NCBI GenBank assembly: GCA_008632985.1 | Contig: QPGO01000001.1 | Span: 838,404-902,403 of the forward strand | DNA from: Psammoneis japonica | Lineage: Eukaryota | Length of the DNA stretch: 64,000 nucleotides | Direction: 5' to 3' | Part shown: piece after piece, positions 2,294-57,589 of the stretch | How positions within the stretch are numbered: position 1 is the stretch's first letter | Layout: every line of letters begins with the position of its first letter | The notes under the pieces: model-generated | Told to the model about the DNA's origin: nothing | The model's input: only the letters and a program-made list of their open reading frames with translations | Database searches by the model: none | Position numbers and translations under genes: made by a program

Positions 2294-4647
2294 ATGTCAT
2301 TTTTTCGTGATTTACACACTGTCGAGCAAGCATCCGAGTTCCTTGATGTCTCTGCAGCGGCCTTGCATGTTGTGGAGCTACTTGAGGGGGAAACATGCTC
2401 CATCTCTGGATGCGACCACCCTGCCGTGCGCCGCAACAGATCAAGAGGACCTGGCTCCGGTCACTTTTGCGTTCTCCACCGTCAAGGGTGGTTCCCAAAA
2501 GCTGATCAAGAAAGCAGTTGTCGAGGGTGGGGTCTCTGTGGGTCTCAACATCTCCGTGATGAAGCACTTGGTCGCAAACAGAGTTGCTGTTGCTGTGACG
2601 ACAGCTGCTTGAAGATCGGCTGCTGTGCAACCAATGTAAGGACACCTCGAAAGAAGGAAATCATTCGGACCAAGATTGCAAATGCTGTGGGTGGAGACCT
2701 CTCAGATGTGGTGAAGGATGACAAGCTTCAAAATGAGCCACGTGCGGGACTGTGGCTGGCTCCGTGGCATTTTAGACCGGAAGAAAGGACGTGCAATCCC
2801 AAGATGAAAGAATGGACGATGAACGAGATTGATCCCAATGAGCAACACTGTGATGGCGACCACTTTGCACGGACTGGTTTTCCACCACCAAACTGCCTGC
2901 CTTCAGACTTTGTTGCATGCGAACTTTCTGATCCTGCTTGGGAACGACCAATCAACTGGTGGAAAAGCAAGCAGGCGGCATCAGTGCGAGGCGCAGGCTT
3001 GCAGTCGTGGGTTGCGGCATGCCGTTCGGTCAAACCACTGAGTGAGCGTGATCCCAAAACTCCTCTTGCACATGTGGCCTTTGCAAAAACTCAAGTTGTT
3101 GTGAAGAAAATGTCTAAGATGGCTGTGTTGAAAACAGAAGAGTCAGAAAAGAAGGATGACATCATTGCAAATCTTCGCAGCACCCTTGCACTCGCAAACC
3201 ACGACAAGAATGTCTCCAAGAAGAATGCAAAGCAACTTCAGAACCAACTGGAGTCCTGCAAATTGGAGCTCATTAAGTCCAAAGAGACAATGCTCGAGTT
3301 GGAAGACGAGTTGGTGGCTGCTCATGCCACAAATGAGGATCGTCCTTTGTTTTGCAGCGACCTTGCGCCAGGTGGTGGACTTTCAAAGGCAGCAAGGACG
3401 TGTGCGCATTTTCCCAACTGTGATTCTAATGAGGCCTTCCTGTGTGTTCTGAGTTGGGATGATGACACAGAGGGAGGTGGTTGCGACCGTGGCGATGGAC
3501 TGTGTGTTGGCTTTCGTCGATGCAGCAGGGTGTCTGCCAAAGAAAACGACTCGGAGAAGTGGATGTTAGTGACCAGGAGTTTCCCACCAAACCTGAAGCA
3601 AGAGTTGTTGATTGGAAGACCAAATGCTTGATCTGTTCCATGTGTGCAAAACTTGGAATCTCGTACGAAGCTGTGGAACCTTTGTTTGCCGTCTCTCCTG
3701 GCATCATCAGTGACATGACACACACTTGGGCTGTCTTCTTGAATCGTTCTCTGTCACTGTGGTTTCCGACTCCAACCAGATCACAAATGCTGCGGGCTTT
3801 CCCTGATCGATTTGCATGGGCTTGTGGACATGCCCTTGTCTTCTCACTTCTCGATGCGACAGAGTGTTGGACACAGACAACAACCGAGAGTGATGCTCAC
3901 TCGAGCATGCACAGTGACTGCAAAGGTCATGACACAACAAAAATGCTTGCAGGCACAGATCCCATTGGTTGTTCCCACGATGGATCCATCGCGGAAGATG
4001 GGCACCCAGGATCAATTTCAGATCCTGTCGCAACAAAGATGAGCAAGCTTTTGGACAACGTGCCCTTTGGTCACACGACTCTGGATGACAAAGGATTCAC
4101 GATCGACAACTTTGCAGCACGGATGGGCGTCGGGACCCAACGACCTCCGAAGAAGATAAAGCTGCAGGTGAAGCAATCAGAAGCGGACACGGCTGCCACG
4201 CAAAAAGTTGGGAATCTACGAATCTTTAACGAGATGGTGAATGGAGCTGCAAAGATGTCGACGCATTGTTTTGATTTGCCAGTGCCGATCCTCCAGCTTG
4301 GTCTTGTGCCTTTGATGTTTCGAGTGGCATGCCTGATGCAGAACTTTCATCCTGCATTAATTCATGGGCAGACGTCATCATTCGTTGACGAAAATGGCAA
4401 GGTGCAGTCAAGAAAGCGACCATGCCGTGGTGAGATCCGATGGTGCGGCGCAACAGATGAAGGCCTGTTGGACTGTGGAGGTCACATTCATCTTTGGGGT
4501 AACGTGAAAGAGGTTGATGGATTCACTTTTCTGAGAAACGAGCACCCAGACAAGAGTCTTGTCGAAACAGGCGAGATGGCACTGCAAGAGAAATGGGACA
4601 ACAAGCTACAAGAAGGTCACACGAAGCATGCAGTCGGCAACCCATAA
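2294..4647 (+). pseudogene. ISL2EU/Harbinger-type transposase (possible THAP-like N-terminus, coiled coil, HTH, DDE_Tnp_4), frameshifted near 3480-3630
   Basis: LLDATE..., MHSDCKGHDTTKMLAGTDPIG, GSISD, DDKGFTI and KVGNLRIFNEMVNG match the DDE_Tnp_4 pattern (IDxTE, YSxYKxH, GxxSD, ADKGF, RIxVER). Split over ORFs 2294-3631 and 3481-4647. Confidence 0.8.
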
Positions 4648-4649
4648 AT

Positions 4650-4835
4650 TGTGACAACGAATGTCGACACTGTCGTTACAAAAAAGAACAACCTTGCTGT
4701 CATTGCAACAATGAGCAAAAGTGCTGTCGTTACAAAGCATGTCGACACTTTCATTGCAACACCAAGTAAAAGCACCACAGTTGCAACACATGCCACCAAC
4801 ATCATTGCTGCAATGATGAGTGCTGACACATCACC
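4650..4835. repeat. Degenerate minisatellite between the convergent transposon ORFs
   Basis: Recurring gtcgacact, gctgtcgttacaaa and tcattgcaaca units. Confidence 0.5.
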
Positions 4836-4838
4836 ACT

Positions 4839-7102
4839 CTAAGACTCTTGCAGTGTTCTGAACAGATCTTTGATTGCGGCACGATCGCTGCGAAAGCAAG
4901 CTTCATCAAGCATTTTCTTGCGTTTTGCCATGGTCCCATGGATTTCGAAGTTAGCTCCGACACCCTTTCTAACATTTCGAAAGGTGTCCGAATCATGCTT
5001 CTTTGAAAGCTTCTTCTCCCCTTCCTCTGTGGTCCTGGGTGCTCTGGCAATCTGCATCTGTGAAACGTGACTTGTTGTTCTTGTTTGTGGTCGGCTTGAA
5101 GATGGTTGGAGCCACGCACAAAAGTCAATCGTTGACGGCTTCTCTACAAGGCGGTCTTCGCCCCAATGAAAGCACTGGGACCACATGGTCCTAGCTTTGT
5201 GACTGCAGTGGCCCAGCCCGGCAGCACATGGGCCCATGCAGAGTGATGCAACAATGCCCGTGATTCGACCAAGGTTGTGTTTGTCCTTGTCAAATGAAGT
5301 CTCCTCCACTCGCAGCACAAGCAATGTCAGGTGCAACCGTCGATGAGCACGTTCGTCTGGATCCGCATTTCGTTTGGCAGCAGAATCGGTTGTCATGGAT
5401 GCCGGTTGTTTTGCCAGGACATGCAGCAGCTCTCTGTCCTCGGAGAAACAGATGGCGTGACAATGCAGCTGTTTCTCCTCGCATGCATGCTGCAACGTCC
5501 CCCCGATGCTTTTCTGATTGATGTTTCGGCCAATGTGAGCAAAGCATTGACATGTTGTAGACTCGGGCAGTTCAGGACTTTCAGTGCAAATGTGGTCAAA
5601 GTCATCACTGAACTTTCCTCCAGCAAACAAGTTGTGGCAGTCCTCGAGGTGCTTCTTAATGTGGCAGCTCCGTGGATCCAAAATAAACGGGTCGCTCAAT
5701 TGATTGTTTGAGATTCGGAGAATGGATTCTTTGCTGTTGTCGCATTTTGTCTCAATTTTTTTGAATGATCCACTGGTCTTCTTATCTCGATTGCATGCAT
5801 GACACAGCTGGGGAACGGAAGAGAAAAGGTTTTGGAAGCCTCGTGCCGACTGCCTCATTTCGTCACGCGACATGGCGGATCCCATGTCATTCACTGCATT
5901 TCCACCATGAGCACTCAAGCAGTCTTTTAATTCAGCAACAGTGCAATCCTCCACTCCCTTGTTCTTTGGCAGTGAGAAGCTGGCTGTGCCATCGATCTCC
6001 TCTTTCGAACGATGAAGTAACTGCGACGTGCTTGTTGACTCAAGTGCTTTTTTCTCCTGGTTGGAAAAAAATTCCTCCCACGTTCGTGGATTGATCAATC
6101 TGCCAGAATGCTGTCTTGTCCTTTCATTTGACCGCTCTGTTGTTTTGCCAGACTGCACAAACATTGCTGTTGCTGTCATGACAGCGACACTCTTCGTAAC
6201 ACGTCACAACGTCGCGAATGTACGTTTCACACCGTTCCACAGCATGCAAGTCATCGTGAACATTTTTGTTGAGTTTTGAGCTAAGATGGAGAGCAAAGCT
6301 GGCAACCAGCAATTCAACTGTCACACCTGGACAACTCAACATGGACTGGAATGCATCAGCCACCGTTTGCTTCCCAGCACCGTGCACTCCACTTTTGTCC
6401 GGCGTACAATCACATCCGAAACAAGCTCCACAAATCTGGAACACAATGTGGCCGAACTTCTTGAAAGATTTCCAAATTGTGGCAGATGGATTGTTCGAGT
6501 CAAGCTCTGGACTGTCTGGGGATTGATGTGAGATCAAAGCATTGAAAATCCTCTCTTGAACAGCTGTCAACTGCCATGACACGCTGGTGCCCAAGTGCAA
6601 GGAGATCGCTGTCGCCCGTGATTGCAGCACACGGACAGCTGCCGTCATCATTGTTGAACCCAGTCAGGCGGCATTGGTGATCTGCCTCTCCACGTGCAAC
6701 AATGGAATCGATGCCAAGGTCATCGCACACCTTCTTCGTCATCGCCACGAACAATGGAGCCATTCGACTGCTTGCTTGTTTGCCATGTTCAGCAGCTTCT
6801 CGGCGGAGGGCATCGCGACGCTCATGTTCATGGCGTTTGTCGGCCAAGTCTTGACCATCAAAGACCACAAACATGTTCCACTGACACATGCATCGAAAGC
6901 AATAAATCTTACGAGCAAAATGTCGGAGTGGGATGGAGTGATCAATGTTCTCCTTGTCGGTTGAGGTGCAAGACATCATGCAGCTTCGGAGAAGGCCTGC
7001 TGCATCAAACGAAACACGGTTTTTCCCAAAATTCAGCTGACGAAACGTCTTTGGCCTGTTCGGGGGCAAAGGCACTAGTGGCAGAAGTCCGTGGATTCCC
7101 AT
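4839..7102 (-). pseudogene. XPG/FEN1-like (PIN + H3TH) nuclease with SAP domain and SWIM-like zinc finger, in three frameshifted pieces
   Basis: MGIHGLLPLV, VSFDAAGLL, VVFDG, GEADHQC, GDSDLLALG (XPG N/I); GCDCT..GVHGAG (H3TH, consensus GCDY); CTVAELKDCLSAHG (SAP-like); CxxxCAAGLGHCSH (SWIM-like). ORFs 6500-7102, 6124-6651, 4839-6179. Confidence 0.7.
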
Positions 7103-7651
7103 GGGTCTGCTCAGAGATGATGCTCAGCATATGAGTGCTTTGACGAGCGCACCTCGACGTTGTGCGATGGAGTGTCGAAAATCCAGAAAAAAGTCAGCGC
7201 TGTCACAAACAGCGATTTTCGTCTGCACGTCTTCCGCCAAAAAAGGTCTATCGCGGAGCGGAATCGGCTACGGGCAACGTACAGAATTACGGGGGGTCCC
7301 CGTTAACATAACTTTTCTTAACAGTATGGAGGAAGAACTGTAAAATGTAGAAGTAATACAGTGTCAGCTCTCCCGAATTTTCACCGCACGGTCCCCACGG
7401 TCTCGTGTCTTCGTTGTTATTATTTGTGGTCGTGGAAAGGGTGAGATCGTTCCCAACATCGCTGTGTTGTTGTCCAGCTTGTATGTTATGTTGAACTGAC
7501 ATCAGTGCATGGCGTGCATGGCTGCGTTTTATGATTGGTCTTACCGCCGATTGAATTTGATTCGTCTGCGTCCACAACACTTTTCTGTAGGTCAAAACCG
7601 TTCCGACACACAAGCACAAAACGTTGTTCCACCATCGACGCTTTCAGAGCC

Positions 7652-9646
7652 ATGAGCAACAACAAACGGAAACGGGAAACCGACTTGGTAGAGGACGTGG
7701 CGAATCAAACCATGGATGAATGGGGGAGCTTCGTACGTGATAAGGAAAGTCTCCGTCAAGAGATTATCAGTGATCTGAGAAGCAGCGGTAGTAACAACCA
7801 AGAAGAGTTGGAGGGAAAAGCAATTTGCGTCGTCCGAAAACTCCTCCGTCAGGACATCCATCGGCAAAATGAGCAGCTCAGCCGGCAAAATGAGCAGATC
7901 AGGCATCACATGATGTATACGATTGATCGGCTTCTTCGGCTCCACAACGCTAGTGAAGGGGACGACAGAGACTTGAAGGCGCAACTAGCGAGCTTTCGCA
8001 TCGTAAAGTCCAATGAAAGCTCAGGTAGCTCACATATAGATACTGGCCGAAAACAAGCAGCGATTAGTTGCACGCCCTTTGAAGTTGATGGCATTTCGTT
8101 CCGCGACCAAGATATTGATACGTTGCCCTCCGCCATCCTAAGCAATCAGCAGCCGTGGCCGAAAAAGTACACAGGTGAAGCTGATGTCCAAAAGTTTGTT
8201 GCATTGTTGCTGGATGATGCATTGACATATGTCAATTGGTTCCTCAAGAAATGCCTGCCGAGAGACTCAGAAATGCCAACATTGATTGCCAGGCCTGAGG
8301 CGAGCTTGTTTTCCAACAAACCGGATCACATTGTGGTATTCGATGAAAGCACTTTAGTGCCTGTGTTGAATGTGGAGGTCAAGAAAGAACACAGGCTTGT
8401 CTTTGAGTCGGGCAGTGTCAACGGACAAATGTTGGACTACATTATGCTGGGAAAACTGATTCATGGGCACTATTCCTTTGGAGTTTTGACCACCTTCAAC
8501 GAGTCTAAACTTGCGTGGGTAGATGAACAAAGGTGCAATACGGAGGCCTCAAGGACCGGAAGACTGAGCGCCAAAAATCTTTCTCAACTCACCGAAGTCC
8601 TCGCAAAGAACATGGGCAAAATGAAGGTGACAAACCCCTCGTATGATTCTGCGTCCCTTTGTGCTGAAGAACAAACTATTGGAACGCCATTGAATCCCGT
8701 ACCAGAACCTGTGGTGGAGGCACCGAAGTCAAGGTTCCCACCCGAAATAGTGGAGGAGGCATTGACGTCGGGTTCCCGACTCGAAATAAAGAGCTCGACA
8801 CAAACCTCTGAGGGAACTAGAAGGGCCACTCAACCCGGGCGATCCACGTCTTCTAGACCCATACGGCAGACCACCGAAACGTACAAGCCACATCAGCTGT
8901 TTACAGTACTTTGCAATGCCATTGTTGCGTCTTTAAGGATGGGTCAAAAGAAGCTACAAATACACAAGAACTTTGAACAGAACGGGGTGGTGTCAAAAGA
9001 TGATTGTGTTTTGCGCTTATCGAATACGAAGGAACGCAAGAAAGGGCATGAGTGGTGCTTTCTTGAGCAAGATTATCGTATGAAGGGTCTCTGGCATTTT
9101 GACGATAATCAGGAAGAAATATATGTCGCGGACCTTGTAGGCACTGGGGACACTTCCAGAGTTTGGCGCGCCTTTGTCAAGGCAGAAGAGGACGGCTATG
9201 GTTACGCATGCATCTTAAAATATTGGATCAAGGTTTATGACCCGCATACGAATAAGACTTGGAGCAGCGATAAAATTGATTCTGAATCTGAAGGAGCCAC
9301 AGCGAGAGAGGTTGAAAACTACCATCTGATCTATCCAGAATGGAAAATGTTTGTGGGCCGAAAGAGGCTCAATGCACGGTGGTGTGTCTGTCTTCCATTC
9401 TTTGAACCTGTGGACCGCAACCATGAAACACTGAAGAAAGTTTCGCAGATCCTTGAGGAGAGGTTTTACAAAAATGGAAAGTCATATCAGTTCGCGGGAT
9501 CAGATCGTCGCTGGCGGCATGTAGGCCAGTTTCGAGAGGATACAGTACTTTTTGATTTGGCTGGCCTGACGATAGTCGAGGCAACAAAGGAGGACCACAG
9601 CAAGTACGTGACCAGTCACATTGAAGAATTGAGGCGTCGAATGTAG
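7652..9646 (+). CDS. Crinkler-like protein: PD-(D/E)xK restriction-endonuclease-like domain plus degenerate kinase-like C-terminus
   Basis: Long uninterrupted ORF with normal TpA content, first ATG at 7652. KPDHIVV...LNVEVKK...GQMLDY (REase fold); LVGTGDTSRVWRA, ILKYW, DRRWRHVG, LFDL (kinase-like). Confidence 0.65.
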   Translation: MSNNKRKRETDLVEDVANQTMDEWGSFVRDKESLRQEIISDLRSSGSNNQEELEGKAICVVRKLLRQDIHRQNEQLSRQNEQIRHHMMYTIDRLLRLHNASEGDDRDLKAQLASFRIVKSNESSGSSHIDTGRKQAAISCTPFEVDGISFRDQDIDTLPSAILSNQQPWPKKYTGEADVQKFVALLLDDALTYVNWFLKKCLPRDSEMPTLIARPEASLFSNKPDHIVVFDESTLVPVLNVEVKKEHRLVFESGSVNGQMLDYIMLGKLIHGHYSFGVLTTFNESKLAWVDEQRCNTEASRTGRLSAKNLSQLTEVLAKNMGKMKVTNPSYDSASLCAEEQTIGTPLNPVPEPVVEAPKSRFPPEIVEEALTSGSRLEIKSSTQTSEGTRRATQPGRSTSSRPIRQTTETYKPHQLFTVLCNAIVASLRMGQKKLQIHKNFEQNGVVSKDDCVLRLSNTKERKKGHEWCFLEQDYRMKGLWHFDDNQEEIYVADLVGTGDTSRVWRAFVKAEEDGYGYACILKYWIKVYDPHTNKTWSSDKIDSESEGATAREVENYHLIYPEWKMFVGRKRLNARWCVCLPFFEPVDRNHETLKKVSQILEERFYKNGKSYQFAGSDRRWRHVGQFREDTVLFDLAGLTIVEATKEDHSKYVTSHIEELRRRM

Positions 9647-10120
9647 AACGAGAGGGTAATGACGCTCGACATTGCCAGTCGGTGTTTGCAATCACTTTGC
9701 GGAATCAGATCGTCGCTGGCGGCATGTAGGTCAGTTTCAATAGGAAACCCTTCTTTTTGATTTGGCTGACCTGAAGATAGTCGAGGCAACAAAGGAGGAC
9801 CACAGCAAGTACGTGGCCAGTCACACTGAAAAATTGAGGCATCGAATGTAGAACTATAGGGTAATGGCGCTCGACATTGCCAGTCGGTGTTTGCAATGCC
9901 ATGAATTTTCATACAGTACATTGGAAGTTTCGAATGCCATTGAGCAAGGTTTGACAGAGATGGAACGTCATGTCTGTTCGTGCTTTAGGTCGTTGCCCGT
10001 AGCATGTTGGTCAGTTTCAAAACAAATATTTGATTTAACTGACCTGGAGATAATTTGCACAACAAAGGAGACCGCAGCAAATGCGGTGAACGTGATCAGT
10101 CACATTGAAGAATTGAGCCT
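9497..10120 (+). repeat. Tandem duplications of the 3' end of the upstream gene
   Basis: atcagatcgtcgctggcggcatgtagg...gacattgccagtcggtgtttgcaat at about 9497-9692 and again at about 9704-9897. A third, more degenerate copy lies at about 9990-10120. Confidence 0.85.
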
Positions 10121-10699
10121 TTGAATGAACTCACACATTTTGTATTCGAAGGTATGAGTGACTAAACTAAACTTAAATGTACAAAACCGGCCTATTTTGT
10201 GTGTGTCATGGCCGGATGAAGATCGAGAGTATGGTTTTGGAAATGTGAGAAAATGGGCCGTAGAATCTGGCATGTGTCACGTAGACTCACCAGGCATCCG
10301 GACGGCATTTAGTCAGCAATCCTCGACATCGGACAAAATAAGACAACACACACATTGCAGGTAATTGCATCATTCCTGAGGATGACACCAACTGGCCAAT
10401 GCTTAAAATGTGGAAATGGGACCTTCAGTGAGTGTGTCATGGTCAAAAGAAGATGGAGAGCAAGGTTCCGGAAATGTGGGCACCATCGACCGTAGAATCT
10501 GGTGCTTGTCATGTAGAAATGACACAATTCTCAAACATTTTTTGTGGATTTTGACGTCATGTGCTGCATGGCATACGAACAGGCTGCACACACACCTGGC
10601 ACAGTCACTTCTGTAGAAATCACACATGTTCCTTCACCTGAATGCACTGGTTGCATTGGGGCAATGGTTGTGAGGGAATCCAGGTGTCTGTGGGAGGAC

Positions 10700-13600: not shown

Positions 13601-13825
13601 CAGTCAACGACACATTTTGCAACACTCAGGGCACTTGTCAAGACTGGGCCAGCGCACACACATGATGTGGACAAACAAGATGAATCTCATGCACAACTCA
13701 CCTCACAGAAAGACGCGACAATGATGGTGCAAACAACGCAACAGCGCCATGGTGTCTGCAAGAAAAATGTGTGGAGGCTGGTGCAAAAAAGTGGTCTGCA
13801 AGTCCTTCTCCACTTTTCGATTTTT
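10700..13825 (-). mobile_element. Heavily mutated retroelement remnant, probably the 5' part of a LINE related to the 22560-28810 element
   Basis: Depleted of both TpA and CpG. 13704-13825 aligns with 28683-28809. Boundaries approximate. Confidence 0.5.
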
Positions 13826-14479
13826 GTTGACTGGCCAGATCAGCTCAGCAGGTGGGGTTTTCGATCGTAGGGAATTCCTTATTCGACCCTGAATTTCCTT
13901 AGACAAGGAAAGACAAGGAAACCAGATAAGGAAAAATTAATTGTCGTGATTTGCTGCGTAGTTGCAACTAACATGATCCTTTCATCTACTGTCAGCGGTC
14001 GACGACTTGTCTCTAGCTAGAGTGGAGCCTGTAGCTGCTAATACACTTCAACACACTACATTCAACGAGTGAGGCAGACGCCGTTGGGCACCACAATCTT
14101 GGGTCCAAAGAGGCAACATGCTCCCATGTTCTCTTCCAGCATGTTCTTTCCAATCGAGTCCACAACAAGCTCAAGCTGGGAGAAGAGACTTTCAACAGAT
14201 GCACTTGTCAATAAGGAGCTCCTTGTGCTTTCTCTACCCGCATTGTCCATCGTCGACAACGGCTCATCACGCACGACGAGTTCTGTTCCGTGTGCTTTTT
14301 CGCTCATGGCAGCGAGCAGAAAACACGCGCAGCGCCACAGCTGACGTCACAATCTACGTGGGATTCTACGTGAATCTTAGCACAAAGATTTTTCCTTGTC
14401 TTCTTCCTCATCTTGGGCTGACCACTTCCTTACGATCGAAAACCCTGTCAGCAGGGCCCCGCCTCTCTCCACTCTCCAG

Positions 14480-17400: not shown

Positions 17401-17660
17401 TGCTGCGACACACAAGCAAGGAACTGTTTGGCTCTGCCAGATGGCAGCTTGTTGCATTTTGTCCAGAGCTCTGCTGTGGCCATTGGCATGGTCGGGGTGC
17501 TTTTTAAAGTCGCTGCCATTCGCCCTGCTTCGCACCGGCAGGTTGCGCACCGCACCGGTGCATGCAGACGTGCGTGCGCGCGTCCGGCCCACTTGCTTTT
17601 CTGCCCAAATTCCGCTTGACGTACAGTCTGTCTGTCGAACTTGAAATGAAGAAAGGTCTA
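14480..17660. mobile_element. Unclassified TpA-depleted repeat block with an internal inverted repeat
   Basis: TpA is scarce. acagagtccatcacacagcaagaccc (15881-15906) is inverted at 16306-16331. No recognisable protein. Confidence 0.4.
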
Positions 17661-47100: not shown

Positions 47101-47795
47101 CGCACGCGTCAGTGCTGATGTGATCCACGTGAAGCACGCACTCTGCTCTGCGCTCTTTCAACTGTTTTTGCATCACAGATCTCATCAAGAGGGGTGAACT
47201 TGAAATTGTGTTTTGCCCAACTGACAAGATGCATGGAGACATTGTGACCAAGCCTGTGGTTGGTGTGAAGTTTGTTGTGGATCGTCAACAGATCATGATT
47301 GTCCAAGTGCCTAAGGGTTAGCCTAAGATGGGCAAACCCAAAATTGGAAAGCGATCGTCAACAGATCATGAGCATCCAAGTGCCTGCGGCAAGATGGGCG
47401 AATCCAAAATTGGAAAGTGTCTTGTCCTTCGGTCAGCAGGAGTGTGTTGGAAAATTATACACCAAAAGCTCAGGTGGATGCCGAAATTAGATGGCACAGC
47501 TTGCAAGACCAAAACGCATGCGTCATTGCTGATGTGCTCCACGTCAGGCACATGCACTGCTCTGAAGCAGTCATTGATCTCTTTCAATAATTTTTGCATC
47601 ACAGATCTCATCAAGAGGGGTAAACTTGAAATTGTGTTCCGCCCAACTGACAAAATGCTTGGAGATTTTATGACCAAGCCTGTTGTTGGTAAGAAAAGAA
47701 GTTCATGGTGGATCGTCAACAGATCATGAACATATAAGTGCCTAAGACGGGCAAACCCAAAATCGGAAAGTGTCTTGTCCTTTTGGCAACAGGAG
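44150..47795 (+). repeat. Patchwork array of shuffled Copia family A-like 3' end/LTR fragments, duplicated as two blocks
   Basis: Repeated cagcaggagtgtgttggaaa, aaattagatggcacagca and gatctcatcaagagggg..ttgaaattg units. Block ~44150-45590 is repeated at ~46555-47795; exact 190-bp tandem at 44263-44642. Confidence 0.8.
45610..46119. mobile_element. MITE with ~40-bp TIRs
   Basis: ggatggatccacgggggtgagggcggacatttacgg versus ccgtaaatatccgacctcacccccgtggatcaatcc; flanks tcaa (45606-45609) and ttaa (46120-46123); AT-rich, TpA-normal interior. Confidence 0.85.
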
Positions 47796-50267
47796 TAAAG
47801 GATGGTGAGGGTCAAGGTGCGAATTAATTTTTTTCACTCTTGGATCATTTCATTTTACACCATATGATTTAAGACTGTCACAAATCAATGAAATTTCATT
47901 GCATTTGGTTCATCCTATGACGAACTCTTTGTCACCTGCCCACCATAACTCTTGTCTTTGGGATTTATTACAGGCTTAATACAAAGATGTACAGTAAGAC
48001 CAAAATCTCAAATCTATTCCCAACGCTGACACTGATTTCTTGACTGCGTCAAGAGTCAGATTTTCTGATGAACTTGAAGTTCCTAATGAAGAAAGTGACA
48101 AGGCCCCATCGATCTAATCATTGCTGTACAAACAGCTTGAATCAACTTTTATCTTAGAGCAATTACTAATGTAGATATTGTTAAAAATGGGAAAATCCGT
48201 TTAATCGAAAGACACCACCATCTTTCCGATCCCAATAAAAAGCATGATTTCTGATGCTTTACTGTAGAGTTGTCAGTCGCCCCACCTCTATTCTTCTCAC
48301 CTGGATGGTCATAAGATGTCACGGTTTTTAAGTTTTTTGTGCTGAGAAAGCCGCAAAGTTTTCAAGAACTGTACCTTCATAGGTTTAGCCTGAGATTCCA
48401 AAGTACATAACACATGAAATGAGTAAATGCTGCAAAACACCAAAATAATAAATAATTTTTAATTCATGGTGCTGTTCCTGTTGCTTCATGACCAGGGCAT
48501 TGAACCACACAGTTTTACCGTAAGCAGTTGGTGCAGGTGTTCGGCTGCTGGAATCCCAGTGGATGAGCATGGTGGTGGAGGCAGGGGAACGCTAAGAAAT
48601 GCAATTCTTTTTTTTTTCTCAAAAGAGAACTTACCTGAGTCACAGAAACTCGACAAACATTAGTAAAGATACGAAGCACACCACCACCTTCTTTCTTCTG
48701 ACTAGAATTATCAGGTTTACTAAATGATTTTTCTCAATTTGATTGTTGTTAGATGGGTCTGGAATCGTGGTTCAAAGATGAAGTTCTTTATGTTACAGAC
48801 ATTCATCCTCGAATGCGTATGGTGGCTGAACCTCAGCAGGTTTTTGGGGGCGAAGAAGTCAATTAGAACCTGTGTCTTGAAAGAGTGCAGTTATCTGAGC
48901 CCACATTCAGGAAATCATGGGCATGAACTCACCGCTGTTCATGATCGACGAGACAATAATTTGATCACGATGAAATGCTCCTGTTGGACTCTCTGGAGGT
49001 TGCACACCGCATAAATTTTGTGCTCTGTTCTCTCGGCAGAGAAAAACAAGATAAGCTCATCTTATCTTGGGTGGTTTTATGCATGAAACCTCAAGCTTAA
49101 AAACTCGACAAACAACATTTCATGCTGCCTGTAAAACTTTTTTCCTGTTGAGAACATCATCATTGCATCTGCGACTTCACCAGACAAATCAGGAGGATTC
49201 TGGGTGGTGCGAAAATGTGCCAATGGTTAGAGTCCAATGTCATTCAGCAATCATTGCGTTGCCAACACAATGTGCACTAAACAGATCCCGCTAAACTATT
49301 TGCACATTTTTTCACCACCCTGGACTTGCCTGCTGGTTTCGTTTGTGCAGTGTGCTGTGCAAAAATGCTCTGTGTTAAAAAATTTGCTGATGCATTCAAA
49401 CATTTGAAAACTGCAGTTTTGTTGAATGCCTGGTCAGCAAAAACAGCAATCATGAATTAAAAAGCCAATCTTTTTCATTTCTTGGATTTTTCACAACACA
49501 TTCCTGCTGCCAAGGACAAGATTCTTCTTGTTTTCCAATTTGCCCATCTCAGGCGATGTTCATGAGAGTTTGTCGATCGACAATGAATTTTCTTGCCAAC
49601 CACAGGCTGGGGGTTGTGCAGTCTCCAATCATCTTGTCTGTTGGGCAGAGCTCAGTTTCAAGTTCTCCACTCTTGGCCGGTCAGTGATGTAAAAAATGCT
49701 TGGTGTTGAAAAAAATGTCTGGCTGGTCAGTGATGTGAAAAATGCTTGGTGTTGAAAAAAGCGTCTGGTGCACTTGCCAGATCATGGCAAAAAAGCAAGT
49801 CTCTGCTTGCCAAACGCACTTGTTTTGAAAACTCACAGCTCCGCTCTGCAGCCTGAAGAGTCACCCGAAAACCAAGCAATTTGATTGATTTTTCAGCAAA
49901 TCTGTTGATGGGGGCAAGACACCAAGACAAGAAGAAGCCACCTGCAATGGCAGGATCTGCCAAGCACCATGTCAACAGCAACAGCGACTCTCATTCCACA
50001 GACAAAAACAATCTGCCAAGGTCATGACTGCTGTCAAACACAGCCCAAGCTGCGACGATAACTCTGATGATGACTTGCTTGGCTGCTGTCCATTTGAAGA
50101 GAAGCAACCTGCCAAGGTGGCAACCACCATCAAGCACTGTCCAAAATGCGGCGACGGCAAGAAGAAACCCTTCGAACACGCACCCTCTTTTTCCTGGTGC
50201 AAGCAACGTTCAAAGACACTCTGTCTCTTGTTGCATGGGATCTCTGCCTTGGTTGAGTGTTGGGCCA

Positions 50268-53200
50268 TGACAGGATTTGAACAGGATTCAGGTGCGCGCG
50301 AAATGTCGCACGCTGTTTAGTTTGCCGAGCACAGTTTTGTGTGCTTCAGTTCCGCGCGTTCGCGCGCGATGCAGTTTGCTTTCGAGCCACAAGGCTCACA
50401 AGAATAATGACAGTAGCCCAATCACACCGACTTGCACGTCTTTCGGCTCCTGTGACGGTCTCTGAGCAGAGACTCATCTGCCATTTAGACAGCAGCAAGG
50501 AGTTGTTGTTTGAATTCTTGCCATTTGCCTTCAACTTCTGTCAGATTGACAGTCTTGCTCATTGTCAACCCATTGAGCAACCGCCATCGTCGTCGTTGAT
50601 TTTGCCGACGACGCCACTTCAATTCTGCGTGGACCTCCGTGTGTGTTCTACATGCATCGGCAAATCTGCGCGCATGTGACACCAGGGCATCGGCAGGAAG
50701 TTAACGTCGCCGTCAAGTCTCCTTGCCGCTGTGTGTCTGGATTGATCACACTGCCTTTGGTCGCTGAAGACATGCACTCAACGGTCACATCCAAGTCCAT
50801 CCTTGATCCTCATCCCTTGATGCACCTGTTCATCGGTTGATGGTCAAGAACCCTGCATGTTCAAGGATCTTCGTCGCTGAAGACATGTGCACACACGCAT
50901 GTCTTCACGGCCAAGAACCTGCACCCACTCTTCGGACTGCGGTTTTGCTGCCACCCCACAAGCACACCGAGTCCATTGTGCCTGATCTGCCCCAGACCAC
51001 TGGTGCTCTGCAGTTCTGCCAGGTCCACGAGGACGACTGTGAGAGCAAGTGGCCGTGATTGCAGCCTGCGTTGGGGCGAGGGTGCTTTCCCGCGTTTGTT
51101 CGTTCGTCCACAGCACCCAACGCCTGCGTCAGCTGGCCAGCCTGATCGGGAAATCCAACCAATGTAAAATGAGAATGGTTCGGGGGTCTTGTCCACCTCC
51201 AGTCAGCTTGCCTGCAGGGGTTTGCAACCCGCTGCTCCGCTCGCAAGCAACCCAAAGCGCCGCCAGCTGCGGGTTCGGACGTGCTGGCACAACTCCACGG
51301 ACCGGATGGGAAGTTTAGCACTTGACAACAAACGGGGTGGCAAAGCCCGGCGACTTCTGATTTTGAGATAGTTCAAGATTTCAAGTCAAGTCTGTTTCAA
51401 GTCAAGTCCATTCTCGCCCAAGTTTCGAGTCTGCCTTCGCTTCCCAACAAGAATCGATTGTCCTGACACCACTTTTGTCTGCCATGGTTCTCACTCGTCA
51501 GCAACAAACCGATGGTTTTGAGCACGTTGTTGGAACCGTGCTTGCCCAAGGTGCTGGGAGCCCTCTTCGTTTGGCTTTGGCCCAAGACGGCACGGACTCG
51601 CATCAGGAACTGTTCACGTTCATGCCGTCCCAAATCGACTCGCTTGAGTGCGACAACGGCACCAATGTGATCCCTTTGCCCCGTGGTTGTAAGAACATGT
51701 TAGCAGCTCTGGTTAGTCTGTGCATTGTCAAAGCACACAAAGGTCTTGACGTCGCCAATGACTCCTTGTTGTTCACACATGACGAGTTCCTTGCCCACCG
51801 CCTCAGCCCCGACTGCATGTCTTCTGTGTCCATCGGCAGTTCACCCCTCGCACCTCCACATGTCACCAACCCGACCAAGGCACGCGACCCGGTGCGGGAC
51901 TTCAAGCGAGGCATCAAGCGTGATCCCACCGCTTTCACGGCTCTCAAATCCGACAAGCAGTGGCACACTTGGCACACCTCACTTGTGGCACAAGCCAGTG
52001 CCCAAGACGTCGAGTGCATTCTAGACTCGTCGTACAAACCGACCAGCCCCGAAGACAAACTGCTCTTTGCTGAACAGCAAAAGTGCATGTTCGCCGTCTT
52101 CGAACGCATCCTTCTCACCGACAAGGGCAAGGCTCTCATCCGTGAAAATGTGGGGTCTTCTGACGCCCAGACCGTCTGCTGCGCCTTGTCTGAGTGCGCC
52201 CTCGCCTCCACCCGTGCATCTGTCGAGTCCTCCACCTTGCTGACGTGCCTCACCACCGCACGTCTTGGTGATGGCACTTGGAAAGGTCCGACCCACGGGT
52301 TCATCCTTCATTGGCAAGATCAGTTGCGCAAGTGCGAGGCACTCATCCCGGCCAGTGACCACTTCTCTGAAGGACAGAAGCGCGTCATGCTCGAGAATGC
52401 CGCACACCCTGTCGAGGAACTCCGTGCTGTCAAGAACCAAGCTGATCAGCATCGCACGCAGAGTGGCAAGAGCCTCACATGCGATCAACACTGTGGCTTG
52501 CTCCTCTCCGCGGCAGCTCAATGCGACAGCACGTTTCAACCCAAGACGACACCTCGAGCTCCCCGGCCAGTGACCACTTCTCTGAAGGACAGAAGCGCGT
52601 CATGCTCGAGAATGCCGCACACCCTGTCGAGGAACTCCGTGCTGTCAAGAACCAAGCTGATCAGCATCGCACGCAGAGTGGCAAGAGCCTCACATGCGAT
52701 CAACACTGTGGCTTGCTCCTCTCCGCGGCAGCTCAATGCGACAGCACGTTTCAACCCAAGACGACACCTCGAGCTCCCCGACGCGCCATGTGCGCACACG
52801 ACGTCCACTCCGAGGAACCATCCGATGATGTGTTCTACGACATCGACAGCGACGTTGACGTCCTTCAGGCTTGCGCTGCCTGCACCCGCGGTCCCAGCCT
52901 CGCCGGTGACCAATGGCATCGTCTCCCTCCCGACCACCAACGGATTTGGGATTCGTTGCCTGATTCCTCCAAAGCAATCATCCTTGCACATTCTCGCCCG
53001 CCTCCTCGCAACCCGCGCGCCAGCAACCACCATGAGTCCGTTGCGATCAACCTTCATGACCAACGACTTGGGAGCGATGGTGATGTCAACTTGTCCAACA
53101 CGCCTCCTGCTGCCGCTGGTGACCCCGCCCCAAATGTGGACGCCACATCAGATGATCCCATTCTGGCGCACCTCACCAAGCGCAAGCCATTGCCTCCTGG

Positions 53201-56200
53201 TGATCTGCAACGCCTGTTGTCCCCTGACCAAGCCCCCAACGCCAGTCGATCGGGCCCATCCGCCGCTCCCTCTACCTCGCCAGCTCCCACAGATGACACA
53301 GAACTCAACGGCCGCACCTGCCACCGCGTTGACAACCACAACGTCATTTGCTCTGCCTCCGCTCATCGCTCCACACGCACCGGTGCTCCAGTCGATCGTG
53401 GAGCCAACGGCGGCATTGCTGGCGACGACGTTCGCGTCATTGCACACACCTCTCGCCAAGTCGACGTTCAGGGCATTGACGACCGCCAATTGGTGGACAT
53501 CCCCATCGTCACTGCTGGTGCCGTCATTGAGACACAGCGTGGTCCCGTCATCGCCATTCTCCATCAGCACGCATGCACTGGAAAGGGCAAGACCATTCAT
53601 TCCTGCGGCCAGCTGGAATGGCACAAACACGATGTCAACGATCGCTCTGTCAAGGTGCCCAACGGCTTGCAGCGCATCGCCACCCCTGACGGCTGTGTCG
53701 TCCCAATCGACATCAAGGGTGGCCTGCCTCATGTTGCCATGCGGCCCCACACTGACGATGAATGGGACACTCTGCCACATGTCATCCTCACTGGTGATGA
53801 CACATGGGATCCTTCCGTCCTCGACCACTCTGTCACTGACGACGACCAGTGGCATGACGCGATCTCCGACCTGCAGGACGATCCCACTGCCAACCTGTTT
53901 GACGAGTGCGGCAACTGCCGTCACCGTGTCGTTGTCAACCAGGCCATCATGTCCGCCTCCTTGTCCCCCGATCACGCGTCCGCTCTCGATGACCACCTCA
54001 TTCCAACTGAGGACGTGTTCTACGAATGCCACTTGCGCGCAGTTGACCCCACGGACGACGATGTCCCGCCTCCGGAGCGCAATGTGCAGCCCAAGGACCC
54101 CCCTTGCGAGTCCCTTCGGCCCTGCTTTGGTTTCCAACCTGCCGACACGGTCCGCCGCACCTTCGACTGCACCACGCAATGCGCCCGCCTGCCCGCCGGT
54201 GCGCACCTTAAGAAGGCCCACAAATCGCCCAACCCTGCCCTTAATGTGCACCGTCGCAACGAGCCCATCGCCACTGACACCGTTTGTGCCAACACCCCGG
54301 CTGTCGACTCTGGTTGCACCAGTGCCCAACTGTTGTTGGCACCGAGTCTACCGTCACTGACGTCTGCGGCACCAAAACCGACAAAGAGTTTGTCAATGCA
54401 CTCGAGGACCAGATCCGCGAGCGTGGTGCTCCATCCAAACTCATCAGCGACCGCGCTCAGGTTGAGATCAGCAACAAGGTGCTCGGGATCCTACGAGCCC
54501 TCTTCATCTCCAGCTGGCAAAGTGAGCCTCACCAGCAACACCAAAACTTTGCCGAGCGTCGACACCAGACCGTGAAGCGCATGGCGAACACTGTCATGGA
54601 TCGTTTTGGTTCGCCCGCCCACACATGGCTGCTGGCACTCATGCATGTGTGCTTTGCACTCAACCACACAGCGTCCCCATGTCTCCACTGGCGCACGCCC
54701 CTCGAGACTCTCACTGGCTCCACCCCGGACATCAGCCCATTGCTCCGCTTTCACTGGTGGGAACCCGTGTGCTTCCACCTCGATGACTACGATTGGCCGT
54801 CCGAATCCCGTGAGTTGCGTGGGCGCTTTGTTGGCATTGCTGAGCACGTCGGCCACCAGATGACCTTCAAGATTCTCTCTGACGAGACTCAGAAGATCCT
54901 CTGCCGGTCCAACGTACGCTCTGCTGCCACCGATCCTGCCGTTCGAAACCTGCGCCTTGATCCTCCTGATGGGGAGCCACCTGAACCCATCATCAAATCT
55001 CGCCATGACGACAATCCCGTCGATTCTCCTGATGGGGAGATCAGGACACCCAAGATGCCAGTTTTCGATCCGCAAGACATCATCGGACGCACCTTCCTCA
55101 TGCAGCCACAAGAGGACAGACAACGCCACAGAGCTCGCATCGTCAAGGCCGTTGAGGACCATGAATGGAAAGTGAACGGCAATCCCGAGCTCACTAAATT
55201 CGTCTGCTCTGTCAACAACGACGAATGCGAGGAAGTCCTTGCCTGCAACGACATCATGAATCACATTGAGCAAGAGGACGAAGACACTGCTGTTTGGAAA
55301 TTTCGACGTGTCGTGTCACACGAAGGACCTCTGAAGCCTCATGACCCAACCTGGAAAGGCTCAAGCTACAACATCATGCTTGAATGGGAAAGTGGGGAGA
55401 TCATGTCCGAGCCTCTTGCCATCATCGCCAAGGACGACCCCGTCACCTGCGCCATCTATGCACGAGAGAACGGACTTCTCGACACGGATGGCTGGAAGCG
55501 GTTCCGCACCATCGCGAGGCGCCAAAAGAAGCCATTTCGCGTGGCCAGCCAAGCCAAGCTTTGCTCCTTCCGCACTGCACCTCGCTGCAAGTGCGGATGC
55601 AAAGTTCCCCGGAACTGCAAGCATGCCATGTCACTGGACGAACGCAACGGCAACCGCAAATGGGGAGACGCAACTAATCTCGAGATGGACCAACTCGATG
55701 AATACGAAGTCTTCCATGACTGCGGGCCCTTCGAGTCTTCCACTCCTCCTGCGGGACACAAGAAGATCCGAGTGCACCCAGTGCGCGACGTGAAACACGA
55801 CGGTCGCCACAAGGCACGACTCGCAGCCGACGGGCACCTCACGGACGTACCTGTCGACAGTGTCTGCTCCGGAGCAGTCTCCCTCCGTGGCCTTCGGCTG
55901 ATGATTTTCCTGGCCGAACTCAACGAGTTGGAGACATGGGCCACCGACATTGGCAATGCCTGCCTTGAAGCCACCACCAAGGAGAAGCTTTACATTGTAG
56001 CTGGACCCGAATTTGGCAAACTCGAAGGACACATCCTTGTCATCCACAAGGCACTGTATGGACTGCGCAGCTCCGGTCTCCGCTGGCACGAGCGCTTCGC
56101 CGACTGCCTGCGAGCTGAAGGCTTCTTCCCCTGCCGCGCCGAACCCGACATTTGGATGCGCAGGAACGGCGACCATGTGAATGCATTGCCGTTTAAGTGG

Positions 56201-57589
56201 ATGACCTCGCCATTGCCATGAAGGATCCTCAATCCTTCGTCGACACCCTCACGGAAAAGCACAAGTTCAAGCCAAAGGGCACGGGACCGATTGAGTTCCA
56301 TCCAGGCTGCGACTTTTCCCGGGATCCTGACGGCACCTTGTGCTTGTCCCCACGCAAGTACATTGAACGCATGGTCGACAGTTGCACACGACTGTTTGGG
56401 GAGAAACCCACCACCAACGCCCTGTCACCTCTGGAGAAGGGTGACCACCCCGAACTGGACACTTCCGAACTGCTGGGGCCCGATGGCATTCAACAGTTCC
56501 AGTCTCTTGTTGGTTCCCTCCAATGGGCGGTGTCTCTTGGTCGAATTGACATTGCCACAGCCGTCATGTCACTCTCTAGCTTCCGAGCTGTGCCCCGTCA
56601 AGGGCACTTGGATCGTGCCAAACGCGTCTGTGGGTGCCTCTCCAAGATGCGACATGGCGCTCTCCGCGTTCGCACGGAAGAGCCCGACCATTCGGATCTC
56701 CCTGCACCGGCCTGTGAATGGATGCATTCCGTGTGCGGCGAAGCGGAGGAGATGATCCCGAAGGACGCTCCACCGCCCCTTGGCAAGTTCGTCACCACCA
56801 CCCACTACGTCGATGCAAACTTGTGTCATTGCATGCTCACCGGACGCTCTGTCATGGGAATGCTCCATTTCCTCAACAAGTTCCCGGCTGATTGGTTCTC
56901 TAAGAAGCAAGCCACGGTGGAAACTGCAACCTGCGGGTCTGAATTTGTTGCCGCAAGGACTTGTGTCGAGCAGATTGTCGACCTGCGCATTGCCCTGCGT
57001 TGCCTCGGCGTCCCGATCCGTGACATTGGTTGCATGTTCGGTGACAACAAGTCGGTTGTAGACAGTGCCACCACCCCGCACTCCAAGTTACACAAGCGAC
57101 ACACCGCTCTGTCATTCCATCGTGTGCGTGAAGCGATTGCCTCTGGTTGCCTTGAGCTCCACTTCATCGAAGGCTCCCGCAACCCTGCTGACATTCTCAG
57201 CAAACATTGGGGTTGCTCCCAAGTCTGGGACCTTCTCCGTCCCCTCATGTTTTGGAACTTCATTCCATCCGAAGTCGAATCTGTTTCTGTGACTCCTCAA
57301 GCAAACTGGGGAGTGACAGGATTTGAACAGGATTTGGGTGCGCGTGAAATGTCGCGCACTGTTCAGTTTGCCGCGCACAGTTTTGTGTGCTTTAGTTCCG
57401 CGCGTTCGCGCGCGATGCAGTTTGCTTTCGAGCCACAAGGCTCACAAGAATGACAACAGTGGCCCGATTGCACCGACTTGCACGTCTTTCGGCTCCTGTG
57501 ACGGTCTCTGAGCGGAGACTCATCTGCTGTCTAGACAGCAGTGAGGAGTCATTGTTTGAATTCTTGCCATTTGCCTTCAATTTCTGTCA
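50268..57589 (+). mobile_element. Ty1/Copia LTR retrotransposon (family B, CoDi-like), full length, mutated
   Basis: LTRs 50268-50543 and 57314-57589 (TG...CA); TSD GGCCA at 50263-50267 and 57590-57594; PPT ggggag. Confidence 0.95.
51484..57313 (+). pseudogene. Copia gag-pol, frameshifted
   Basis: FKRGIKRD (gag), VDRGANGG (protease), LISDRAQVE and SEPHQQHQNFAERR (integrase), DIGNACLEA, KALYGLRSSG (RT), YVDANL, ETATCGSEF, NPADILSK (RNase H). Confidence 0.9.

Follow-up and report, generated by a model that had tools for sequence, protein, structure and literature searches.

Probable TpA-targeted A:T-to-G:C hypermutation of transposon-rich DNA in the diatom Psammoneis japonica

We analysed a 64-kb stretch of the genome of the diatom Psammoneis japonica (GenBank assembly GCA_008632985.1, contig QPGO01000001.1, positions 838,404 to 902,403 of the forward strand), hereafter the window, in which the remnants of unrelated transposable elements carry cysteine or histidine where their homologues carry tyrosine and in which the dinucleotide TA (TpA) has nearly disappeared from long, transposon-rich blocks. 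The window, to which all coordinates below refer, is 48% G+C and has a single N, at 24679. Taken whole, it is poor in TA and rich in CA and TG, with observed/expected ratios of 0.27 for TA, 1.44 for CA, 1.50 for TG and 0.69 for CG. The depletion is uneven along the window, however: in 1-kb bins the TA observed/expected ratio falls either in the range 0.02-0.2 or in the range 0.4-0.75. A two-state hidden Markov model (HMM) run on TA versus CA/TG steps cut the window into TA-depleted and TA-normal blocks with sharp edges, the switch occurring within about 10 bases. Depleted DNA totals 44,363 bp, or 69% of the window, and there TA makes up 0.018-0.039 of all TA, CA and TG steps (the TA fraction), against 0.19-0.39 elsewhere. 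Every recognisable transposon remnant (five, of four kinds) lies in a depleted block, and all three host genes lie in normal ones. The CG observed/expected ratio is 0.28-0.80 in most depleted blocks as against 0.84-1.12 in five of the six normal blocks. The blocks and the features within them, including open reading frames (ORFs) and long terminal repeats (LTRs), are as follows.

5-7238: TA-depleted block 1; TA at 57 of 1,466 steps (0.039), CG observed/expected 0.69; unannotated ORFs also present
3466-4644, plus strand: PIF/Harbinger-type transposase ORF in block 1; Pfam DDE_Tnp_4, E 2.8e-14
6127-7123 (piece 6503-7123), minus strand: XPG-like nuclease remnant in block 1; Pfam XPG_N, E 6.6e-6, and XPG_I, E 0.0065, in an adjoining frame
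7249-10362: TA-normal block used as a control, with ORF 7535-9643; TA fraction 0.196, CG observed/expected 0.93, Tyr 2.6%
10366-17617: TA-depleted blocks 2 (10366-13853) and 3 (14059-17617); TA fraction 0.018 and 0.035, CG observed/expected 0.28 and 0.78
18226-20178, plus strand: FHA-domain gene (Pfam) in TA-normal block 17622-22553, a control
22561-28668: TA-depleted block 4; TA fraction 0.029, CG observed/expected 0.34
24557-26278, minus strand: C-terminal fragment of a long interspersed nuclear element (LINE, a non-LTR retrotransposon) in block 4; 2,550 homologues
About 29870-30784, plus strand: domains of a 2OG-Fe(II) oxygenase gene (Pfam) in TA-normal block 28673-34855, a control
32693-34681, minus strand: BBE-like FAD oxidase gene (Pfam) in the same TA-normal block, a control
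34858-45504: TA-depleted block 5; TA fraction 0.036; Copia A, its second copy and repeat debris, with inverted and direct repeats at 85-94% identity
About 35320-41016, plus strand: Copia A, in block 5; Pfam RVT_2
41237-43528, minus strand: second Copia A copy in block 5, inverted and truncated by an internal deletion; 90-94% identical to Copia A
46289-47308: short TA-depleted segment, TA at 8 of 233 steps, inside a 2.2-kb repeat array at 43.9-47.8 kb
49301-61607: TA-depleted block 6; TA fraction 0.032, CG observed/expected 0.80; Copia B with 1 kb of upstream and 4 kb of downstream flank
50261-50544 and 57307-57590: LTRs of Copia B; the pair is 90% identical
52446-54572, 54278-56218 and 56197-57450, plus strand: Copia B polyprotein remnant in three frames; Pfam RVT_2, E 3.4e-13
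61609-63998: TA-normal block holding a young inverted repeat, 61749-62253 and 63444-63948

Judged by their sequences (an RVT_2 polyprotein, the LTR pair in Copia B and named relatives that are mostly from diatoms), Copia A and Copia B are diatom Copia-type retrotransposons resembling those that have been named CoDi (PMC2806351). Copia B has 640 homologues, the best at 65% identity, and Copia A has 213; the named ones come from Fistulifera solaris, Fragilaria crotonensis, Epithemia clementina, a Nitzschia sp. and one metagenome-assembled genome labelled Holophagaceae, and a cluster look-up for ten homologues yielded no further organism names. We read the ORF at 24557-26278 as a LINE fragment because, among five long homologues that were scanned, Exo_endo_phos is present in two and a sub-threshold RVT_1 match in one. 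Searches against solved structures returned no homologue for this ORF or for the two XPG-like ORFs. Pfam scans over the 142 ORFs of the window gave usable matches in only seven, the hypermutated proteins mostly falling below threshold.

The genes in normal blocks provide an internal control. The FHA-domain, 2OG-oxygenase and BBE-like genes are long uninterrupted ORFs with a TA fraction of 0.19 and a TA observed/expected ratio of 0.5-0.7; the block that holds the last two has a TA fraction of 0.193 and a CG observed/expected ratio of 0.84, and the oxygenase and oxidase contain 2.3% and 3.2% Tyr. Overall, Tyr makes up 0.0-1.0% of the transposon ORFs and 1.2-3.2% of the three host-gene ORFs, the median among homologues being 4.1%. 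Compared with solved oxidases, the BBE-like protein retains Tyr in the conserved SYG, NY and KYDP motifs. By our reading of the best printed alignment, a weak comparison at 30-40% identity, five of the 15 aligned tyrosines of 6f72_A face a Tyr in this protein, three a Trp, one a Phe, one a Cys, none a His and five some other residue.

Tyrosine in the transposon proteins behaves quite differently from the other residues. The first-pass annotation had singled out nine peptide strings between 3880 and 57230 in which conserved tyrosines of unrelated transposon proteins read as Cys or His. All nine are present where it had placed them, and in the eight motifs that were compared with homologues the Cys does face a homologue Tyr. 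In the transposase motif HSDCKGH, Tyr occupies the Cys site in 8/8 homologues; for Copia A the counts are 109/109 (HDCLAM) and 81/105 (NIKCFY), for Copia B 109/111 (DIGNACLEA), 54/60 (ETATCGSEF), 38/57 (CMFGDN) and 42/57 (KHWGCSQ), and for the LINE motif RAEACG 70/95. The ninth string, GCDCT, belongs to the XPG-like remnant, for which the structure searches above gave no homologue to compare. Replacement was scored systematically with tblastn of 399 homologous proteins (P0001-P0249 and P0274-P0423, of 423 collected) against the window, using columns in which at least 80% of homologues agree and a minimum of 5-30 homologues per column.

Copia B: Tyr replaced at 14 of 18 sites, other residues at 23 of 429
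Copia A: Tyr replaced at 20 of 23 sites, other residues at 45 of 443
Truncated inverted Copia A copy: Tyr replaced at 10 of 10 sites, other residues at 10 of 157
DDE_Tnp_4 transposase: Tyr replaced at 3 of 3 sites, other residues at 19 of 110
LINE fragment: Tyr replaced at 1 of 1 site, other residues at 4 of 59

Pooled over elements, Tyr was replaced at 48 of 55 sites and other residues at 101 of 1,198 (Fisher p 2e-40); leaving out the second Copia A copy, the counts are 38/45 and 91/1,041 (p 8e-31). The comparison with background that the first-pass annotation had proposed therefore comes out in its favour, replacement of Tyr being far above that of other residues. Of the 48 lost tyrosines, 34 have become Cys, seven His, five Phe, one Trp and one a stop codon. 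When the threshold is lowered to 60%, the 105 Tyr sites have Cys in 58 cases, His in 22, an intact Tyr in 12, Phe in 10 and another residue in 3, and the LINE fragment has 4/5 tyrosines replaced (three by Cys) against 20/107 for other residues. In a MAFFT alignment of the Copia B reverse transcriptase ORF with 60 homologues, 3 of 13 conserved tyrosines are kept versus 254 of 281 other conserved residues. Codons for Arg, Trp, His, Gln and Cys are largely intact, conserved Arg being kept at 36/36 sites in Copia B and 25/31 in Copia A (with two changes to His, two to Cys and one to Gln), and the CA/TG excess at these sites therefore derives from TA, without onward change to CG.

Codon endings differ between the elements. 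Conserved Tyr sites in relatives use TAC and TAT equally (867:882). Mutated Tyr codons at 52704-57214 mostly end in C (TGC 14 and TGT 1; CAC 4 and CAT 1), and those of Copia A are less skewed (TGC 9, TGT 6). One of 249 homologues, P0039, which comes from another public source and is 57% identical to Copia B, contains 0.9% Tyr, 4.0% Cys and 4.6% His, which suggests that hypermutated copies have already entered protein databases.

The specificity of the change can be read at the DNA level by comparison with relatives. Eighty related Copia loci from metagenomes were aligned codon-wise to Copia B, and a dinucleotide was scored where 20 or more relatives could be compared and at least 70% of them shared it. 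Among the 80 loci the TA observed/expected ratio runs from 0.33 to 1.02, with none at or below 0.2, and TA poverty is therefore no trait of the family. Copia B retains conserved TA at 6 of 29 sites, the others having become TG (16), CA (5) or TT (2), whereas the other fifteen dinucleotides together are retained at 634/723 (p 3e-15 versus TA). Counted by base, a conserved A became G at 19/32 sites where T precedes it, as opposed to 8/74 where A does, 3/148 where G does and 1/53 where C does (12/275 pooled; p 3e-14), and a conserved T became C at 5/32 sites followed by A, 0/27 followed by C and 1/35 followed by T. Conserved CG, by contrast, is retained at 17/19 sites, and the local composition of Copia B combines a CG observed/expected ratio of 0.9-1.0 with a TA ratio of 0.03-0.17 at 0.56-0.60 G+C. 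With TA kept at about a fifth of its sites and CG at nearly all, and with Tyr encoded by TAY (Y, pyrimidine) only, these counts uphold the earlier claim that the ancestral dinucleotide was TA and not CG. That claim needs one refinement, in that CpG decay is also found in most depleted blocks, so part of the CA/TG excess there comes from CG.

Duplicated sequences within the window show when the changes took place, and on which strand. At 14 codons the homologues have Tyr and both Copia A copies have Cys or His; at six of these one copy has Cys and the other His. The disagreement, 0.43, compares with 0.40 expected under independent hits with the observed Cys:His ratio. Because Cys and His face each other at the same codon, that codon must still have been TAY when the copies separated, and each copy was mutated separately, on either strand. 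Nine duplicate pairs together contain 38 CA|TG doubles, of which the Copia B LTR pair contributes six, 22 TA|TG or TA|CA differences and 47 CG-type differences (CG|TG or CA|CG). Only 1 of the 38 doubles falls in the flank class Y..R (R, purine), against 12 of the 47 CG-type differences (p 0.005), and this avoidance of Y..R flanks ties the CA|TG doubles to TA ancestors.

One young duplication bears on whether the process still acts. The 505-bp inverted repeat at 61749-62253 and 63444-63948, whose arms are 98% identical and lie 1190 bp apart in TA-normal DNA, has 12 mismatched positions, six of them TA-type: two TG|CA doubles (four positions) and two TA|CA differences. A TA-targeted process may be starting in this repeat, which may itself represent the ends of a young DNA transposon or a foldback element.

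Cys and His products both occur in every element with enough sites. TG and CA are both found within each element, and the paralogues split between Cys and His at 6 of 14 codons, in agreement with the first-pass proposal of a process acting on both strands. Its further proposal, that RNA editing and reverse-transcription error are not responsible, is likewise supported: a DNA transposon, non-coding LTRs, an inverted duplication and flanks at single-copy depth are all affected, which places the process on chromosomal DNA and not on RNA or complementary DNA (cDNA).

The bases next to TA strongly influence its loss. After folding both strands together, we took the survival of each xTAy tetranucleotide as its abundance in depleted blocks relative to normal ones. 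Survival was lowest for ATAT (0.02), ATAG/CTAT (0.05) and ATAC/GTAT (0.07), intermediate for GTAC (0.16), ATAA/TTAT (0.18), CTAG (0.24), GTAA/TTAC (0.26) and CTAC/GTAG (0.28), and highest for TTAA (0.49) and CTAA/TTAG (0.54). Loss is favoured by a 5' purine together with a 3' pyrimidine, with ATA/TAT hit most and YTAR least. A per-context direction, TG or CA, was also sought in the comparison of depleted with normal blocks and then dropped, since normal blocks are not ancestral and gains and losses do not balance; survival ratios alone were used.

A second refinement of the first-pass account concerns the ratio of the two products, which is not 1:1 but 58 Cys to 22 His (60% threshold; binomial p 7e-5). 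A bias towards the coding strand was considered as the source of this excess and rejected, because palindromic contexts on coding strands show no excess of TG forms (ATGT 58 vs ACAT 96, GTGC 82 vs GCAC 93, CTGG 69 vs CCAG 78, TTGA 72 vs TCAA 116). We read the excess as a flanking-base effect: Cys outnumbers His because Tyr codons always present TAY on the sense strand. When the base before the Tyr codon is A, the products are 5 His to 4 Cys, and otherwise 17 His to 54 Cys, a shift in the direction expected; a preceding purine versus pyrimidine was not a significant predictor of His versus Cys (p 0.30).

Public sequencing data give a view of the Copia B family and its surroundings. Four runs contain the window, all from one study and sample, and no RNA run is listed among them. 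In one of the runs, here X1, 13,172 k-mer contigs matched the interval 49000-61000, and summed word depth was 33,000-175,000 over Copia B (50203-57821) versus about 62-68 (single bins up to about 210) in the flanks; the Copia B family is very abundant in this run. The 13,172 contigs fall into likeness classes of 99+, 95-99, 90-95 and below 90 with 2,726, 3,734, 4,720 and 1,992 members. Of 409 variable places in the family, 40 were displayed; among the 37 displayed differences private to the Copia B copy, six are TG>CG. The downstream flank, 57822-61000, is as TA-poor as the element itself, and four X1 contigs over 57565-61000 match it with 0 other letters, the contigs over this single-copy flank covering 3.4 kb at a word depth of about 56-68. 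Flanks at single-copy depth are depleted too, although they are possibly old transposon relics, the segment 49489-49711 resembling the 3' end of Copia A.

We consider it quite probable that the window records A:T-to-G:C hypermutation targeted to TpA, acting at the DNA level on transposon-rich and presumably silenced blocks and sparing host genes. The specificity for TpA, the direction of change, the regional pattern, the action on both strands and the independent hits in paralogues are all directly visible in the comparisons above. Such a process would convert TpA to TpG or CpA (A:T to G:C on either strand) across whole transposon-rich blocks; it would follow insertion or duplication, hit each copy independently and run close to saturation, removing about 80-97% of TA with an efficiency set by the flanking bases. 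In proteins, Tyr (TAY) would become Cys (TGY) or His (CAY). The underlying chemistry could be the enzymatic deamination of adenine to hypoxanthine within 5'-TA-3', hypoxanthine being read as G at the next replication, and the purpose may be genome defence that permanently disables mobile DNA.

Several explanations compete with TpA-targeted hypermutation, and the one that survives best is an artefact in which a modified base at TpA in silenced DNA was miscalled, A as G, in the assembly. Some long-read basecallers are known to make transition errors that depend on methylation, the regional pattern is what a chromatin mark might produce, and X1 is possibly the assembly's own data, its technology not being on record. 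This explanation nevertheless seems very unlikely to us. X1 contigs match 3.4 kb of depleted flank without a single other letter, a result hard to obtain from error-prone reads; paralogues disagree between TG and CA about as often as independent mutation would predict; P0039, from a different source, shows the same Tyr-poor, Cys/His-rich skew; and comparable mutations in Bigelowiella natans, described below, were called from Illumina reads (bioRxiv 10.64898/2026.01.13.699255).

A-to-I editing of transposon RNA by an ADAR- or ADAT-like enzyme with a preference for 5' U, later fixed by reverse transcription and insertion, would account for the 5'-T preference, which fits known RNA adenosine deaminases, for the fact that most affected elements are retrotransposons and for the Cys excess of 58:22. 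It is extremely unlikely, even so, to be the cause: the DDE transposase of a DNA transposon has lost all three of its scored tyrosines, T>C products (His and CA) occur in every element, paralogues diverged as Cys versus His after they had duplicated, the inverted duplication and the single-copy-depth flanks are depleted, and sense-strand TG is not in excess in palindromic contexts.

Just as hard to credit is selection, whereby transposon lineages that still amplify would avoid TA or UA, for instance to escape a UA-cutting nuclease, and pass the TA-poor state on to their copies. The extreme abundance of the Copia B family and the scarcity of TA-type changes among displayed copy-versus-family differences (3/37) fit an amplified, TA-poor master. 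Selection, however, should not have cost these elements conserved and presumably essential tyrosines, including that of YVDD, nor left a coding region in three frames; non-coding LTRs and flanks are depleted equally, the 80 relatives are not TA-poor, and TA-type changes arose between paralogues, and between LTRs, once they had duplicated.

GC-biased gene conversion, or a repair bias among repeat copies that fixes AT-to-GC changes, has the right direction of change, highly repeated families to work on and, in Copia B, both a GC-rich composition (0.56-0.60) and additional T>C before G in its favour. It gives no ground for the confinement to TpA, where A>G occurs at 19/32 sites after T and 12/275 elsewhere. 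Flanks at single-copy depth are depleted as well, and conversion homogenises copies, yet the paralogues here diverged; we regard it as scarcely plausible.

Ordinary decay of methylated CpG (CG to TG or CA) as the sole cause, with the Tyr changes a misread consensus, is refuted and has a negligible chance of being right, since there is no CG in a Tyr codon, the loss of CpG cannot reduce TA, 48 of 55 tyrosines were replaced while conserved Arg was largely kept, and in Copia B TA was lost where CG was not; the CpG-poor composition of most depleted blocks, the Arg losses of Copia A and the 47 CG-type duplicate differences show that it stays as a co-occurring process.

Some observations weigh against TpA-targeted hypermutation in the form proposed here, or limit it. 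Copia B also shows elevated T>C before G (12/55), unmatched by the complementary A>G after C (1/53), so that a pure TpA rule is insufficient for this element; the surplus may reflect a GC-rich lineage drifting towards codons that end in C. Repeat fragments at 44-48 kb have their consensus Tyr replaced at 9/9 sites by Phe 6, Ile 2 and Asn 1, in alignments of short repeats from a region that is only partly TA-depleted. Among the 37 near-fixed differences displayed between the Copia B copy and its family, TA>TG or TA>CA accounts for only three, and the copies of this family may have inherited a mutated master instead of being hit independently. Run X1 may be the data behind the assembly, in which case the agreement between the two is not independent. 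Single-copy-depth flanks of Copia B are depleted along with the element, and the cue may be repeats, chromatin state, small RNAs or 'foreignness'. Finally, adenine deamination is probably the chemistry, the argument for it being one of analogy.

The loss of TA has marked consequences for apparent coding capacity. Counted on both strands, TAA and TAG occur 5.4 and 3.7 times per kb in depleted blocks versus 20.3 and 17.2 in normal ones, and TGA, at 46.6 versus 39.7 per kb, does not fall. Of the 65 ORFs of at least 150 amino acids in the window, 56 are in depleted DNA, often overlapping in several frames, with about 20 in 51-57 kb alone. With TAA and TAG erased, dead elements carry long false ORFs in all six frames. 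That the elements are dead is plain from Copia B, whose coding region is broken into three frames and whose YVDD motif (homologue consensus EYIAVYVDD) has a TAA stop at 56194 in place of its Tyr. Such Tyr-poor, Cys/His-rich false 'proteins' will find their way into gene predictions and protein databases, which makes them a hazard for annotation.

The remaining parts of the window contain further features. Blocks 2 and 3 gave no Pfam match in any ORF of at least 100 amino acids. The interval 11001-13000 within block 2 shows an extreme strand skew, its plus strand being rich in A and C, with observed/expected ratios of 2.3-2.7 for TG, 0.02-0.03 for TA and 0.22-0.28 for CG, and has no recognisable coding content. 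The two blocks are split by a 191-bp TA-rich island at 13868-14057 (14 TA in 37 steps, 42% G+C), and the sequence adjoining it, 13701-13826, is 83% identical to 28680-28810. The LINE fragment of block 4 is flanked by a 293-bp repeat, 24385-24677 and 26211-26503, whose copies are 99.7-100% identical; the sole N of the window lies two bases past the first copy and may mark an assembly join and not biology. At 43900-47800, a 2.2-kb tandem or dispersed repeat array has copies 64-100% alike and pieces resembling the 3' end of Copia A, and TA-depleted and TA-normal stretches alternate along it. Short tandem duplications, several of them 100% identical, comprise a 111-nt unit in at least three copies (60930-61303) and two-copy units of 215 nt (52347-52776), 190 nt (44262-44641) and 205 nt (9486-9895). 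In the downstream flank of Copia B, ORF 59672-60457 had no usable match in the Protein Atlas.

Among the normal blocks, the HMM labels 18263-18626, inside the block of the FHA gene, as depleted, probably a chance run. No protein family was found for ORF 7535-9643, and the BBE-like gene matched only fungal-dominated clusters in the Protein Atlas. The window also has a weak Pfam match to DUF6824, and its genes are intron-poor; together with the transposon homologues these features point to a diatom, probably a pennate one, and the uninterrupted host ORFs set the window apart from the intron-rich genome of B. natans.

In the literature searched, hypermutation at TpA is described in a single 2026 preprint, on the chlorarachniophyte Bigelowiella natans. 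Mutation-accumulation lines of this alga had 302 single-nucleotide mutations in the nuclear genome, 231 of them within two integrated viral regions; of these, 230 were A>G or T>C changes, each lying on a TpA, and the rate was about 1000x background (Mettrop et al., bioRxiv 10.64898/2026.01.13.699255). The preprint describes the targets as integrated giant-virus and virophage DNA, the larger region being single-copy and silent, reports an enrichment of DDE endonuclease and reverse transcriptase domains among TpA-poor coding sequences, and proposes an ADAT2-like DNA adenine deaminase as a candidate only; its main text makes no mention of diatoms, stramenopiles, 'context' or 'trinucleotide' (bioRxiv 10.64898/2026.01.13.699255). 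The two cases are alike in that A>G and T>C at TpA give TpG and CpA on either strand of genomic DNA. They differ in lineage, B. natans being a rhizarian and P. japonica a stramenopile; in targets, which in the window are transposons (two Copia lineages, a LINE and a Harbinger-type element) and in the B. natans preprint integrated viral DNA; and in extent, TA observed/expected ratios being 0.02-0.2 over 69% of the window as against 0.45 reported for the B. natans giant-virus region. In the window, moreover, CpG decay co-occurs and a flanking-base hierarchy is described. The B. natans process was seen de novo, whereas the only hint of activity in the window is the TA-type differences in the 98% repeat. 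New here are the diatom lineage, the transposon targets, the saturation and the flanking-base footprint. No report of TpA hypermutation in diatoms was found in the literature searched, which covered papers outside subscription, and the words TpA, dinucleotide, hypermut and deamin are absent from the accessible text of two papers on diatom transposons (PMC2806351 and 10.1101/2025.10.24.684338).

Better-known systems resemble the process in part. Repeat-induced point mutation (RIP), as found among Neurospora and other ascomycetes, also makes dinucleotide-specific transitions at the DNA level in duplicated mobile DNA, on both strands and in each copy independently, with irreversible loss of coding, and can likewise affect neighbouring DNA. 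It is nonetheless a mirror image: RIP turns CpA/TpG into TpA, raises AT and creates stops, whereas in the window TpA becomes CpA/TpG, GC rises and TAA and TAG are erased. The RIP signature is accordingly opposite in every 4-kb bin, with TpA/ApT at 0.09-0.55 and (CpA+TpG)/(ApC+GpT) at 1.3-1.8. The decay of methylated CpG by deamination of 5-methylcytosine, which is to be expected in methylated transposons of diatoms, similarly converts a palindromic YR dinucleotide to CA or TG on either strand, regionally and in silenced transposons, but its target is CG, its change is C>T, it leaves Tyr codons untouched, and Copia B is depleted of TA without loss of CpG. APOBEC3 enzymes, too, kill retroelements by deaminase-driven hypermutation in a dinucleotide context; theirs, however, is C>U on the minus strand of cDNA, confined to retroelements that have yet to integrate and leaving G>A changes that are strand-asymmetric, and the window shows none of these features.

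Adenosine deaminases (ADAR and the ADAT2/ADAT3 TadA family) would offer the simplest chemistry for TA to TG, namely A to I after T or U. At a Tyr codon, the change of TAC to TGC resembles what happens in the UAC context found in the anticodon loop of tRNA. Their known roles, however, are on RNA, and an RNA route is contradicted by the affected DNA transposon and flanks. The B. natans preprint cites, in its Discussion, amphioxus ADAT2 as an enzyme acting on DNA (bioRxiv 10.64898/2026.01.13.699255).

The finding of TpA hypermutation in a second and ecologically dominant algal lineage suggests a widespread process rather than a curiosity of one strain. It opens several avenues. First, an enzyme search becomes feasible, for deaminase-fold genes common to genomes that carry the signature and absent from those that do not. 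Second, the flanking-base preference provides a footprint to set against candidate enzymes. Third, the process would be a natural counterpart of fungal RIP with the reverse base change, and so bears on the evolution of genome defence. More tentatively, and on balance with some doubt, diatoms might possess a heritable, RIP-like defence that works in the opposite chemical direction, through a DNA adenine deaminase that is guided to silenced mobile DNA and rewrites its TpA to TpG or CpA on both strands until the element has died, and whose footprint would be the flanking-base hierarchy. As the signature also arises de novo in a rhizarian, such a system would be ancient and common to the stramenopile, alveolate and rhizarian (SAR) lineages. 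If this is true, a SAR-wide defence would have shaped major phytoplankton genomes in their composition, in their apparent gene content (through long ORFs that are false) and in the load of transposons that they carry.

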